Positions 7,522 through 24,537 of a DNA stretch of 64,000 bases are shown one piece after another. Each line of letters opens with the position of its first letter. Within the stretch, counting starts at the first letter, position 1. This DNA comes from Octopus sinensis (Eukaryota), in assembly GCF_006345805.1 (NCBI RefSeq), contig NC_043000.1, positions 135,718,001 through 135,782,000 of the forward strand, written 5' to 3'. The notes beneath the pieces are model-generated. The model saw only the letters and a program-made list of their open reading frames with translations, did not search any database and had not been told where the DNA came from. The translations under genes and the position numbers were made by a program.

Positions 7522-7583
7522 CTACGCTGACGAAGCTACAGATATCCTTGTGATATTAATAGCTGAAACTGTACGGTACGTAG
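7522..7583 (+). ncRNA. Canonical type I hammerhead ribozyme
   Basis: CTACG-CTGACGA-AGCTA...TAGCT-GAAAC-TGTACG-GTA-CGTAG; all three stems pair; predicted cut after 7578. Confidence 0.88.
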
Positions 7584-8473: not shown

Positions 8474-9270
8474 ACGTCGAGCTGGCAGAATCGTTTGCAC
8501 GCCGGGCGAAATCCTTAGCGGTATTTCGTCTGCCGCTATGTTCTGAGTTCGAATTCCGCCGAGGTCAACTTTGCCTTTCACCCTTCGGGGTCATCTAAAT
8601 AAGTACCAGTTACGCACTGGAGCCGATGTAATCGACTTAATCTGTTTGTCTGTCCTTATTTGTCCTCTCTGTGTTTAGCCCCTTGTGGGTAGTAAAGAAA
8701 TAGGTATTTCATCTGTCGCTACGTTCTGAGTTCAAATTCCACCGAGGTCGACTTTGCCTTTCATCTTTCGGGGTCGATAAATAAAGTACCAGTTACGCAC
8801 TGGAGCCGATGTAATCGACTTAATCTGTTTGTCTGTCCTTATTTGTCCTCTCTGTGTTTAGCCCCTTGTAGGTAGTAAAGAAATAGGTATTTCGTCTGCC
8901 GTTACGTTCTGAGTTCAAATTCCGCCGAGGTCGACTTTGCCTTCATCCTTTCGGGGTCGATAAATTAAGTACTAGTTACACACTGGGGTCGACGTAATCG
9001 ACTTGATCCCTTTGTCTATCGTTGTTTGTCCCCTCTATGTTTAGCCCCTTGTGGGCAATACGAAATAAGAAATAAGAATCGTTAGCACGCGGTGCAAAAT
9101 GCTAAGCGACATTTCGTCTGTCTTAACGTTCTGAGTTCAAATTCTGCAGGGTGTCAACTTTGCCTGTTATCCCTTCAGGGTGGATAAAATAAATGCCAGC
9201 TTAACAGTGGAGTTGATTTAACTGATTTATCCCCTCCCCAGAACTTGCTGACCTTATGCCAACATTTGAG
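8474..9270 (+). mobile_element. SINE family B (Nin/Deu-like domain) tandem array
   Basis: One head and three ~183-bp bodies with GCCTTTCATCCTTTCGGGGTCGATAAATTAAGTACC-like motif, then a degenerate copy. Confidence 0.8.
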
Positions 9271-11656: not shown

Positions 11657-12259
11657 ACAATTCACCGCCAATGTAATCAGAGAAACAAAAAAGACAGGAA
11701 GGTCATGGTTGGTAATGCTTTTCATCATAGGTCGACAAGGTCAATTCTAACATATGACTTTGCAGCCAGAACATTGCTACAATCTCCACCGCCGCCACGT
11801 CGATAACACCAGCTTATCTAACTTACAATCTAAATACAGTTCTATATCAATACTTTACTTTATGTTGTACTCGTACAACCAGTAATGTAATATTATAAAC
11901 TTAATAACACACCAAAGCCTTTCAAACCTATCAACGCTGAGAGGGAAAAGATTATTACATATGAACTAATGATTATATTGTATTTAATTTATCATAACAT
12001 CATGTTACCGAACCCATGGTATTACATTTCTGTTTATAGTCATTCACATATATACATAATACATACACATAATACATACATATATACATACATACATACA
12101 TACAAACGTACGTTCAAACATACATACATATAAATATATAATCGTGTGTGCGCGTATATGTGTGTGTCTGTGTGTACCTTTTCGTATAGCCAGATGAAGT
12201 TCCGGTGAACAAAACTAATTCCCATATTTAGTCCCCTAATTGATGTTTATTTATACATA

Positions 12260-14740
12260 CAAACAATATGGATATTATCAAACAATATGGATATTGTTTG
12301 CTTCACAAACAATATGGATATTATCCATAATGTTAATGTGATGCCGACAATGATCTCGGATCACAACATAATAGAGCTGTCTATGTATGGAACAAAAGCC
12401 CCCGCAGACACACAGCCTATACGAAGCACCCACCATCTCTCCAACTTAAACTTTCATAAAGCCAACTGGAAGTCGATTGAGAAAGAGATCCTCAAACAGG
12501 ATTGGCCTGAATGTCCTCCTCACCGGACATAAACATGAAACACAAACACTTCATGTCCATAATACAAGCCATATGTGACAAAATGTCCCAATGTGCAGGG
12601 CCAGCACACACAAGAACAAAAACAGGATCCCTAGAGAAAGGAGGATTCTTATGAGACGACGGACAAGGATTGCAAACCGCCTGAGCAAGCACACCAAAAG
12701 TGGTGAGAAGTCTCGGCTCGAAAGAATGCTAATGGAAACTGAGAAAAGTCTACATCAGTCCCATGAAAAGGAGAGAGCAGATAAAGAAGCTTGGGTAATA
12801 GAAAATATAAAATCAAACCCTAAAGCTTTCTTTAAGTTTGCCAAAGAGACAGCCACAGTGCACCAGAGAATAGGACCTCTCTTCCAAAAAGATGGCTCTC
12901 TCACAGGAAATCCCACGAGGATAAGTGAAATACTGAACGAACAGTTCCAAAGTGTGTTCACTACACCTCTAGGACACAGGCAAGTAAACAACCCAGAAGA
13001 ATTCTTTGCCACTTTACCAGCGGCCAAAGAGACAAAAATTGAGTACATCAACATCGAAGAAGATGATATCACACTAGCCATTGATGAGATTGACACAAAC
13101 TCAGCTGCTGGACCTGATGGATTCCCAGCGATCCTTCTCAAATCGTGCAAACGAGCCCTTGCAAAACCGCTACAGCTTCTTTTTCAGAGCTTTCTTGCAA
13201 GTGGTAAGCTCCCAGTCAAACTGAAAGAGGGGGTAATATGCCCTATCCATAAGGGAGGTAGCAGAGCAGATGCTAAAAATTATAGGCCTATCTCTCTGAC
13301 CTCACACATCAGCAAAGTCATGGAACGAATAGTCCGTAAGAAACTAATGTTCCTTGAAGAAAATGACTTACTGTCTGACACCCAGCATGGATTTCGACCA
13401 GGTAGAGGCTGCCTAACACAGCTCCTGCAACACTATGACTGGGTGTTGAAACAGCTACTAAATGGCTCAAATGTGGATGTAATATATCTTGACTTTGCAA
13501 AAGCCTTTGATAAAGTCGACCATGGTATGATCTGTCACAAACTGCGTGGTCTCGGCATAGGCGGGAAACTTGGAGAGTGGCTGCACAACTTCCTAAAAGA
13601 CAGAAAACAGGCAGTTGTGAGCAATGGAGCCACCTCCAGGGAAACGCAAATAACAAGCGGTGTCCCACAGGGCACTGTCTTGGGGCCACTGATGTTCATA
13701 GTGGCCCTTTCAGACATGCCTTCAGTTGCTACGATGACCACCCTTGCTAGCTATGCAGATGACACAAAAGTCTCCCACGCAATACAAACCCTGAAATATT
13801 GCGCATCTGCAACATGAGCTGGACACAATATACAGGTGGGCTGAGGACAACAACATGCAGTTTAATGCAGGTAAGTTCCAGGCCCTGCGCTACTGGCACA
13901 CAAAGGTAAATGACGTGAAGACTGGATACACTGGCCCAGGAAGAATTGCAATCCCTGAGTCAAAATCAGTGCGTGACCTGGGCATTGACATGAGCAATGA
14001 TGCATCTTTCCAAATGCATATTGCTAATCTGGTGATAAAATGCAGACGGCTAGCTGGATGGATTCTCCGAACTTTCAGAACAAGAGAGAAGGAGACACTG
14101 ATGGTCCTATGGAAAACATTTGTCCTCAGCCGCTTGGACTACTGCTCCCAACTTTGTCACCACACAATATAAAACAAACAGCAGAACTCGAAGCAACTCA
14201 GAGAAGCTACACAAAGAAAATCGTCTCAATGCAAAATGTCAGCTACTGGGAAAGACTGAAGGTATTAAACCTCTTCTCCCTGGAGCGGAGGCGGGAGAGA
14301 TATGCAGTGATATACATCTGGAAAATCCTGGAGGGTCTTGTCCCAAACTTTGGCATTCAAAGTTACTCCAACCGCAGAACGGGGCGCCGCTGCGTGGTGC
14401 CAAGGATTCCAACATAACATCAAAATACAGGTCCAGATACTGCAACAGCTTGGGTTTCAGAGGACCACAGCTCTTTAACATCCTCCCTAAATGCCTGAGA
14501 GACTTACATGGTGTGGATGTGGGTTTCTTTAAAACTAAACTGGATCTCTTCTTGTTGGGAGTCCCAGATGAACCTACCTCACGACAGGAGACACGGATGC
14601 GGGCAGCAGCATCGAACTCCCTTGTTGATCAAGTGCCACATATCAGAGGTGGATTCACAAACTAGTGTAGCTCATTCAGCGGTGGTGCCCCAGCATGGCC
14701 GCGGCCTTCGGGCTAAAACATTTTTAAGGATTTAAGGATT
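12260..14740 (+). mobile_element. 5'-truncated CR1-group LINE (APE C-terminus plus reverse transcriptase), frameshifted
   Basis: SDHNII, AGPDG, NYRPISLTS, QHGFR, YLDFAKAFDKVDH, GVPQGTVLGP, YADDTK; tail (TTTAAGGA)n; probable TSD ATTTATACATA at 12249 and 14738. Confidence 0.92.
12591..13817 (+). pseudogene. LINE ORF2 reverse transcriptase fragment (408 aa)
   Basis: RT motifs through YADD; continues in other frames to 14665. Confidence 0.9.
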
Positions 14741-20606: not shown

Positions 20607-21024
20607 AAGGTGGTGAGCTGGCAGAAACGTTAGCACGCCGGACGAAATGCGTAGCGGTATTTCGTCTGCCGTTACGTTCTGAGTTCAAATTCCGCCGAGG
20701 TCGACTTTGCCCTTCATCCTTTCGGGGTCGATAAATTAAATACCAGTTACGCACTGGTGTCGATATAATCGACGTAATCCGTTTGTCTGTCCTTGCTTGT
20801 CTTCTCTGTGTTTAGCCCCTTGTGGGCAGTAAAGAAATAGGTATTTCGTCTGCCGTTACGTTCTGAGTTCAAATTCCGCCGAGGTCAACTTTTCCTTTCA
20901 TCCTTTCGGGGTCGATAAATTAAGTACCGGTTACATACTGAGGTCGATGTAATTGACTTAATCCCTTTGTCTGTTCTTGTTTGTCTCATCTGTGTTTAGC
21001 CCCTTGTGGGTAATAAAGAAATAA
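20607..21024 (+). mobile_element. SINE family B dimer with TSD
   Basis: Head plus two bodies; AAGAATA(G/A)TAGCAAAATT on both sides. Confidence 0.85.
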
Positions 21025-22280: not shown

Positions 22281-22608
22281 AGTTTCACGTTCCCGTTCGT
22301 CGGACGAACGAGAACGTGAAGCTCTGAATAACAGTTTTTGTGATATCCTTGGAGATTTATTAATAAAGTATATATATATATATATATAATCAATATAGGG
22401 AGGCAAAAAAATTTTGTAGAATTCTTTTGCCCCCAGCGGCCTAGTGGAAAAAATTAAATAGTCATAAACCATTTTTAAGTTCAATATCACAATCAAGGAA
22501 CGGCCATAATAGGCCATTCACCCACTAGAAATAACAGCCAAAAAGCTTCAACCGCAAATACATTAATTCTGTAAACCAGGAGAAAATTAAAAAAAATTTA
22601 CCCTGAAA

Positions 22609-22712
22609 TTCCTTATACGATGCACCGTTTCGTCTACTGTTTAATGGTAAACTATCCTGATTAATTAAATCAAGCCAATCTACCATAGGCCCTTAGATTC
22701 ATCAGTAAGGAA
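22609..22712 (-). ncRNA. Type I hammerhead ribozyme, extended stem II
   Basis: TTCCTTA-CTGATGA-ATCTA...TAGAC-GAAAC-GGTGCATC-GTA-TAAGGAA; 7-bp stem I, near-palindromic stem III. Confidence 0.82.
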
Positions 22713-23097
22713 TAGCCAAATCGGAACAGATATTTTTCACGAGGCATTCACGTCCATGCCTCGCCAATATCTGACCTAAAATTTTCAAATCGTCGCACTC
22801 GCGCCAAATTTATCGGCAGCAAATAAATATAAGCCGCCGATTCCATTACGGAACTAACCAGAAAATTCATAATTAATCAATATAGGGAGGCAAAAAAATT
22901 TTGTAGAATTCTTTTGCCCCCAGCGGCCTAGTGGGAAAAAATTAAATAGTCATAAACCATTTTTAGTTCAATATCACAATCAAGGAACGGCCATAATAGG
23001 CCATTCACCCACTAGAAATAACAGCCAAAAAGCTTCAACCGCAAAATAACATTATTCTGTAAACCAGGAGAAAATTAAAAAAACATTTACCCTGAAA

Positions 23098-23202
23098 TTC
23101 CTTATACGATGCACCGTTTCGTCTACTGTTTAATGGTAAACTATCCTGATTAAATTAAATCAAGCCAATCTACCATAGGCCCTTAGATTCATCAGTAAGG
23201 AA
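23098..23202 (-). ncRNA. Type I hammerhead ribozyme (second tandem copy)
   Basis: Same as 22609-22712. Confidence 0.82.
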
Positions 23203-23380
23203 TAGCCAAATCGGAACAGATATTTTTCACGAGGCATTCACGTCCATGCCTCGCCAATATCTGACCTAAAATTTTCAAATCGTCGCACTCGCGCCAAATT
23301 TATCGGCAGCAAATAAATATAAGCCGCCGATTCCATTACGGAACTAACCAGAAAATTCATAATTAATCAATATAGGGAGA

Positions 23381-23478
23381 CTGATGAATCTAAGGGCCTA
23401 TGGTAGATTGGCTTGATTTAATTTAATCAGGATAGTTTACCATTAAACAGTAGACGAAACGGTGCATCGTATAAGGAA
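23381..23478 (+). ncRNA. Truncated hammerhead lacking the 5' strand of stem I, at the inversion junction
   Basis: Inverted copy starts at CTGATGA (23381); GAAAC 23456-23460; GTA 23469-23471. Confidence 0.65.
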
Positions 23479-23603
23479 TTTCAGGGTAAATGTTTTTTTA
23501 ATTTTCTCCTGGTTTACAGAATTAATGTTATTTTGCGGTTGAAGCTTTTTGGCTGTTATTTCTAGTGGTGAATGGCCTATTATGGCCGTTCCTTGATTGT
23601 GAT

Positions 23604-23646
<43 letters not shown>

Positions 23647-24537
23647 ACACATACACACACACACACGCGCACACACACACACCACACACACACACACACA
23701 CACAACACACACACCACCACACACAAACATTATATATATATATATATATATATATAATCACGCAGACATATATGCAAAGATTGCATAAATGTGTGTTTGT
23801 ATCATGCTCTACAGATCGTGCATCTGTTTATGTTATATTAGTATGTGAGAAATTACTTTTAAGTATATATTTGTATACACGCATACTTCTCTCTCTCTTT
23901 CTCTCCCTCTCTCTCCTTATATACATACATACATACACACACACAGACACACACACAGACATATATATATATATATGTATATATATTATATACATACATA
24001 CATACATGTATGTAGACATGCATACACGTATATATATATGTGTGTGCATGTGTGTATATTTGTGTGCGTGAGAGATAGTGTGTGTGTGTGCATGTGACAT
24101 CATTAAATGTGTCTGCATGTTGCTGGGAATATTATTCTTTACGTGGAACAGATCTGGCTATAAATATGGTAGGTAGCGGAGTCTTTATTTTAATTACAAC
24201 AAAGAAAATGTTTACATCCTTTGAAAAATAAAATGGGAAAGTCATCAATTATATTTGCATGTGTGTATGTGTGGGAGTGTATATGCGTATGCGTGTATAT
24301 CTACGTGTGTGTGTATGGTATTTGTGTCAGTGTCTGGGATTATACATATGGTTATATACACTATGTATGGCTGGTTGACTACACACCACGACACACATAC
24401 ACATACACACATATAAATATATATACATATATACATTATACATACATATATATATATATACATTCATGCAAGTGTGAGAGTGTGTGTGTATGAGCAAATG
24501 CATACGCATATACGCATATGTATATATATATATATAT

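Follow-up and report, generated by a model that had tools for sequence, protein, structure and literature searches.

A non-coding hammerhead retrozyme family of Octopus sinensis with two-ended, inverted insertions, likely mobilised by a Penelope-like retrotransposon

Two monomers and an inverted arm within a (TA)n microsatellite

Two tandem copies of a non-coding repeat, each with a hammerhead ribozyme motif and followed by a third copy in inverted orientation, raise the question of how such an arrangement is copied and by which enzyme. We examined this question at a locus in the genome of Octopus sinensis, starting from a stretch of 64,000 nucleotides (contig NC_043000.1, positions 135,718,001 to 135,782,000; here, the window, whose coordinates are used throughout). 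The element is best explained as a non-LTR retrozyme whose mobility was likely supplied in trans by a Penelope-like retrotransposon of the Neptune type, a reading to which we assign a probability of roughly 0.8.

TRF reports a tandem repeat with a period of 490 and 2.0 copies at 22387-23379. The original prediction, made from the sequence alone, had described two near-identical non-coding monomers on the minus strand. Global alignment bears this out, with 7 one-base indels and 0 substitutions between monomers 1 and 2. The RNA between the two predicted cuts has a GC content of 37% and a longest stop-to-stop frame of 58 codons, and is non-coding. Counting 23379 as monomer position 1, the locus is composed as follows.

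22369..22387, unstranded: (TA)n target microsatellite, left flank (sequence)
22388..22402, minus strand: first 15 nt of a third monomer, with the fixed 3' end of type B (tail end, monomer position about 15-25); the same end is seen family-wide
22403..22889, minus strand: monomer 2, 487 bp (TRF, alignment)
22608..22713, minus strand: type I hammerhead 2, predicted cut 22616/22615 (core letters, fold)
22616..23104, minus strand: monomer RNA predicted from cut to cut, with an assembled length of 489 nt (cut positions, fold)
22890..23379, minus strand: monomer 1, 490 bp, at whose 5' end arm B is truncated (TRF, alignment)
23097..23203, minus strand: type I hammerhead 1, predicted cut 23105/23104 (core letters, fold, covariation)
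23203-23196 with 23104-23097, minus strand: helix I of hammerhead 1 (predicted fold)
23195-23189, minus strand: core of hammerhead 1 (predicted)
23188-23121, minus strand: helix II of hammerhead 1, 68 nt (predicted fold)
23117-23106, minus strand: palindromic helix III of hammerhead 1 (predicted fold)
23380..23605, plus strand: inverted arm A, monomer 184-409, 5'-truncated and ending at the fixed 3' end of type A (alignment)
23602..23647, unstranded: (TA)n target microsatellite, right flank, sharing the last bases of arm A (TRF)

The inverted arm is 226 bp long and begins one base ahead of the hammerhead core, in agreement with the start at CTGATGA that had been proposed for it. Without the 5' strand of helix I, this arm cannot form a ribozyme. 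The insertion is flanked on both sides by (TA)n, where a target-site duplication is unreadable.

Plant LTR retrozymes are recognised by a type III hammerhead in LTRs and a 4-bp target-site duplication; the topology here is type I, and there is no LTR-internal-LTR layout. A search of the window with ARAGORN found no tRNA, and thus no sign of a tRNA-derived head. At the sequence level, the element has the defining features of a non-LTR retrozyme, namely tandem hammerhead units that are non-coding, low in GC, self-paired and dispersed. As a circle, the monomer RNA would fold with a minimum free energy (MFE) of -145.6 kcal/mol (z -5.1 against 60 shuffles).

An assembly artefact could produce either the tandem or the inversion at the window locus, and the indel-only differences between the monomers do resemble long-read errors; in addition, no contig from the 4 public runs examined (of 20) spans the whole stretch. 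We nevertheless consider this highly improbable, given that the same anatomy is found at more than 100 independent loci with differing junctions and that the window locus obeys the A+B rule described below. Among young copies, the cut-to-cut spacing peaks at 491 (25/89), with 489 in 16/89, and given this peak the spacing of 489 in the window may reflect homopolymer errors.

Several other repeats lie in the window. A palindromic two-arm element at 100-490, with hammerhead-like cores at +354 and -177 and a helix II of about 60-65 nt, ends rightward in (TA)n and has a related motif at another genomic locus, L262. Type I hammerhead-like motifs with a palindromic helix III are found at 7527 (+) and 935 (-), with a helix II of 31 and 60 nt, respectively, and both are upstream of (TA)n. 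A frameshifted non-LTR reverse transcriptase occupies 12209-14665 (412-aa piece at 12579-13817). Tandem copies of a 183-184 bp repeat, which we take to be SINE-like, are present at 8520-9055 and 20656-21023.

Structure and covariation of the hammerhead

The CTGATGA cores begin at 23195 and 22705 on the minus strand, each within a hammerhead architecture of an 8-bp helix I, CUGAUGA, a helix II of 67-68 nt, GAAA, a 12-nt helix III and a GUA cut. Recomputed positions place the predicted cuts after 23105 and after 22616, and the 489-nt spacing matches the RNA release that had been predicted. The extended, internally paired stem II was also recovered: helix II measures 68 nt in hammerhead 1 and 67 nt in hammerhead 2, and folding gives it an inner hairpin. 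The 12 nt of helix III form a quasi-palindrome that has a 2-nt loop. The two hammerhead cores had been called intact, which is correct for the core letters but not for position 10.1-11.1, where the window copies have an unpaired A·C. This position is A·C or A·A in 34/34 young insertions (at least 96% identical) and A-U in 10/10 old ones, and its state in the young subfamily may lower cleavage.

The Rfam hammerhead families gave no match in the window at the gathering score or at E<=10, and weak hits were microsatellite noise. The long helix II is probably responsible for this miss, and the family suggests that hammerheads of this kind have been undercounted.

To assess covariation, we used 27 selected, deliberately diverse sequences, in which 95.4% of cells pair. 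Nine pairs changed on both sides, five of them in helix I, two in helix II and two in helix III, including its in-trans centre. The covariation score was reached in 0 of 500 shuffles, a count that is not a probability because the sequences are related. Helix II's inner hairpin, although conserved, has one-sided changes only, so that its pairing is less well supported. The compensatory changes in helices I, II and III across subfamilies show that the hammerhead structure is kept under selection.

Helix III is palindromic across the family, a feature that in other animal hammerheads goes with activity as a dimer (PMC4209133, PMC7229834). When a dimer transcript is folded, the double hammerhead (-313.0 kcal/mol) lies 1.6 kcal/mol above the MFE (-314.6) and two single ribozymes (-304.2) lie 10.4 above it; in the fold of the circle, helix III has a probability of only 0.01-0.02. 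These models predict that helix III works only as a dimer.

A dispersed family with two fixed ends

We searched the host genome (2.72 Gb, microsatellite-rich) with the monomer as a DNA query and obtained at least 233 matches (40 scored of 1,127 candidates), the best of them 97-100% identical, with many in arrays and on many contigs. A single-copy locus is thus excluded. The core pattern matches the genome 3,691 times and its reversed control 0 times, so it does not arise by chance, and it fits 315 of 342 motif-spanning units. One sequence variant alone accounts for 459 exact A ends, and the B-end pattern has 781 matches on the forward strand; reverse-strand matches to it were counted several times, so the family size, ~1,500 insertions, has been estimated. 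Between sampled copies and the window copy, identity varies from about 80% to 100%. The window insertion is one young copy of this dispersed, non-coding, high-copy family, and the earlier description of it as a young, multi-copy retrozyme holds on the strength of the matches, the arrays and the covariation.

For the anatomy of the insertions, we examined 138 loci picked by best match or by an exact A end or B end, mostly on contigs C1-C3. These contain 111 inversion junctions, or 109 after dropping two duplicated insertions, and both arms of each inversion point outwards, with no exception. End A lies at about 409 and end B at about 17-25 of the following monomer, 102 nt further. A script found an A end paired with a B end in 96/109 junctions and exact A+A or B+B pairs in 0, leaving 13 unclassified. 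Inspected by eye, six of these are A+B variants and one is a chimera; in two (L091, L178), a near-A end (394, 419) faces an A, and in four an odd or interrupted end faces a B. Some seemingly one-armed insertions retain a tiny remnant of the other end.

Insertions of the family target (TA)n, and junction microhomology is 0-4 nt in most. A arms are up to 3.9 kb long and B arms up to 6.5 kb, and an arm holds up to 13 monomers. The cut site is crossed by 142/192 arms, and 41/96 insertions have at least two full hammerheads within one arm. The 5' ends of arms are scattered over the whole monomer, and we therefore rejected a functional cause for the inverted arm starting at the core; at the window locus, that start is coincidental.

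This anatomy also bears on the idea that the insertion was copied more than twice around a circular or multimeric RNA. Copying across the cut site, up to 13 times in one arm, agrees with it, but the third copy does not belong to the same run. It is a separate arm with the other fixed end (409 vs 17-25), it carries the inverted-plus-tail signature of Penelope elements, and its start at the core is one of many scattered truncations.

Other arrangements were seen during this survey. In L147, a deleted unit is repeated in higher order; in L202, L129 and L094-L096, whole insertions were duplicated after inserting; and at L080:1569-2568, on a short contig, a 59-bp satellite adjoins the 5' end of a retrozyme array. 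Other hammerhead families, with a helix II of 43-64 nt, are present at L062:6264-7360, L065:6786-7728, L168, L297 and L262. The L062 element has a 535-bp period and two outward arms, one end of which is like the B end of the 490-bp family.

A candidate Penelope-like driver and the form of the template

The genome holds several families that combine reverse transcriptase (RT) and GIY-YIG domains with a CX4CxxC linker, a mark of Neptune or Nematis elements (PMC8557442). Intact RT + GIY-YIG frames of 775-777 aa and of 781 aa each occur in several near-identical copies. The 775-aa family has intact frames, a unit of about 4,273 bp, copies that are 97-100% identical, a 3' hammerhead and (TA)n ends. 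It shows a two-end rule of its own, with a 28-nt tail, in all four inverted insertions that have both ends in view among 16 loci (L252, L255, L258, L266). Young Neptune-like families were noted at L061-L064 and L067 (781-aa frame, degenerate 3' hammerhead core) and at L065 and L267-L296 (intact 775-777-aa frames), and additional Penelope families in the genome have about 57-61% protein identity.

A tail and an inverted arm are Penelope signatures (PMC8557442, PMC3846280), and the octopus family resembles non-autonomous Penelope elements in its tandem plus inverted, 5'-truncated copies, its tail at one end, its (TA)n target and the presence of an intact partner in the genome. What it lacks is homology to the pLTR or 3' end of the sampled partners. 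Compared with autonomous elements, the monomer gave short weak matches only, in 39 GIY-YIG loci and 50 RT loci; these searches scored 150/5,029 and 150/9,835 candidates, and a parent may be among the remainder. The partner is therefore inferred from the insertion anatomy together with a single chimera. A 44-nt match in L060 and L049 was rejected as a monomer-bearing element, being part of a small palindromic element of another kind. In L002/L072, L080, L176, L179 and L181, five one-armed insertions whose 5' flank is not TA, no junction with a Penelope ORF was found.

L145:4990-8170: chimera of one Penelope arm and one retrozyme arm

In this chimera, a truncated arm of the 775-aa family, ending at that element's long end, is joined with 2-nt microhomology to retrozyme sequence running from 109 to 4. 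The retrozyme arm on the opposite side extends from 112 to end A. No second chimera was found in 30 further loci of the 775-aa element or among 40 scored candidates, and L145 is possibly a later deletion or a mis-assembly.

We propose that arrays would be transcribed as multimers, in which neighbouring hammerheads would pair through the palindromic helix III and cut; the resulting monomers, about 490 nt long, may be circularised by a host ligase. A (TA)n tract would then be opened by a Penelope RT-endonuclease acting as a dimer, and from each DNA end a cDNA would be primed on a multimeric or circular RNA template, one at the internal AU-rich site A and the other at B. The two cDNAs would stop at variable points and join by microhomology, and the product would be an inverted insertion of which one end alone has a tail. 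For the RNA circle itself, we see about even odds that it is made. In its fullest form, which we offer tentatively, a Penelope RT dimer would copy a single ~490-nt circle, made by the ribozyme, through twin rolling-circle reverse transcription that starts at two fixed sites; the hammerhead would be active only in multimers and silent in the circle, the element would share no sequence with its driver, and it would be one of several families with a helix II of 43-68 nt that Rfam-type searches miss.

Biochemical work on Anolis PAc touches this proposal on both sides. In vitro, the tail is located between two RT start sites (PMC11167929), and by analogy two priming events would fit the octopus insertions. 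The PAc start sites, however, were not homologous to the target (PMC11167929), whereas A and B are AT-rich here, and this counts against the model. Activity of the ribozyme is likewise called into question by Xenopus retrozyme dimers, of which 8/9 were uncleaved in vitro (10.64898/2026.07.22.740005).

We next compared the two arms of each insertion. Arms differ by 0.48%, units within an arm by 0.51% and loci by a median of 4.7%; the nearest other locus is equally close (median 0.5%), so that arms of the same variant are no proof of the same molecule. Both 5' ends fall within 12 nt of each other in 23/96 junctions (shuffles: mean 5.9, maximum 16), and in 20 of these 23 pairs B exceeds A in length by 85-115 nt, the difference that one RNA should give. 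An inverted arm made by self-priming of the cDNA, with the shorter end left by endonuclease resolution (PMC3846280, PMC8557442), would suit several cases where a short palindrome lies at the junction and the two arms share their start position, and 67/96 insertions are compatible with such a fold-back. We regard it as unlikely, since the arm lengths of the other 29/96 cannot come from a single fold-back and the two arms of L145 stem from different RNAs.

The arrays might also have grown with no RNA step, as minisatellites expanded by unequal crossover from single Penelope terminal repeats, an origin proposed for animal retrozymes (10.64898/2026.07.22.740005). Shared or periodic variants within the arrays of L070, L141, L147 and L210, and the whole-insertion duplications of L202 and L129, are what this would produce. 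Most arrays of at least four units, however, are without a shared minor variant, arrays occupy both arms of the inversions, each bounded by an exact A or B end, and no parent pLTR was found among the sampled loci (39 GIY-YIG, 50 RT), all of which make this origin quite unlikely.

More weight falls on the state of the template. Under the same Penelope mobility, the RNA could always be an uncut linear multimer that never yields a circle, its ribozyme having little or no activity in the young subfamily; this is a serious possibility, if a somewhat doubtful one. It accords with the uniform A·C or A·A at 10.1-11.1 in young insertions, with the many arms that cross the cut site and with a read-through transcript including the inverted arm, in which folding buries hammerhead 1 in a 226-bp duplex. 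In vitro, moreover, insertion needed no hammerhead cleavage (PMC11167929). Arm lengths are correlated (Spearman 0.58) and the arms stop at the same place in 22/96 insertions, for which a linear RNA having a 5' end is no worse an explanation than a circle. Set against this are the compensatory changes that keep helices I-III across subfamilies, and the 13-monomer arrays, which exist despite 5' truncation of every arm and imply that something must regenerate length.

The distribution of 5' ends also speaks against an uncut template, since 49 lie in the 60 nt 3' of the cut and 18 in the 60 nt 5' of it (2.7x, p 7e-4, rank 3 of 490). This step is a hint only: its p ranges from 0.0007 to 0.17 over seven window sizes and two counting ways, and comparable steps occur near 184-188, 246 and 441-443. 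The 5' ends do not pile up sharply at the cut site, where 12 were counted at 274-285 against 5.1 expected. Within-array variants do not separate a rolling circle from a homogeneous multimer.

Among the public sequencing runs, the one on record as RNA, a faecal metatranscriptome, contains a single 208-nt family contig at a depth of 2.7, too little to count as expression. A 521-nt contig from X7, another organism's run whose RNA status is a guess, holds a permuted full monomer (490 plus 31), which we read as a closed assembly loop compatible with tandem or circle alike. Contigs of runs X1 (RNA by guess), X6 and X7 gave no usable sign of expression or of a circle.

Among known systems, the non-LTR retrozymes of coral, mussel and axolotl (PMC7229834) share with the octopus family tandem non-coding units that each have a single type I hammerhead, a GC content below 50%, a self-paired monomer, thousands of copies and co-existing Penelope elements; the dimer-dependent helix III and the basal mismatch in helix II are reminiscent of the axolotl motifs. 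Their monomers are 170-400 nt, whereas the octopus monomer has about 490 nt and a 68-nt helix II; inverted two-arm insertions, fixed A and B ends and (TA)n targeting are absent from the main text of that paper. Circles have been demonstrated for those retrozymes, and the octopus family is known here from genomic sequence. Vertebrate retrozymes, described as non-autonomous Penelope derivatives (10.64898/2026.07.22.740005), have the Penelope link in common and a size range (51-972 bp) that includes ours. Their link rests on co-occurrence and pLTR homology and ours on insertion anatomy and a chimera, without homology; tails or inverted arms are not discussed in the available part of that source.

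Neptune/Nematis-type elements and the Anolis Poseidon element PAc combine a tandem with a 5'-truncated copy in inverted orientation and have a tail at only one end (PMC8557442, PMC3846280, PMC11167929), AT-rich or (TA)n targets and a hammerhead with a palindromic helix III (PMC4209133), as seen here; the octopus family differs in having no ORF, a tail of 102 nt (30-40 bp there) and arms of up to 13 units. The MRC1-like elements of Chlamys (PMC8557442) are likewise non-autonomous, with multiple copies inserted head-to-tail and a Penelope-like driver, but they generally resemble their partners at the 3' end, and in most Chlamys no canonical hammerheads were detected.

A repeat annotation for octopus includes Penelope families with recent activity and, in its available part, leaves ribozymes unmentioned (PMC13282606). 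Neither cephalopod retrozymes nor inverted retrozyme insertions with tails were described in the literature that we searched, which excluded repeat databases and most subscription papers; supplements may list cephalopod families or long-helix motifs. The retrozyme class and the Penelope hypothesis are already in print; new here are the 68-nt helix II, the 102-nt tail, the strict two-end rule and a chimera that points to a driver. The enzyme that mobilises animal retrozymes and the origin of tandem, inverted and tailed Penelope insertions are stated as open questions (PMC7229834, PMC8557442, PMC11167929). The octopus family ties a retrozyme to the Penelope machinery through insertion anatomy and a chimera instead of homology, and its ~1,500 natural products, 490-nt template and intact candidate enzymes provide the material for an in vitro test.
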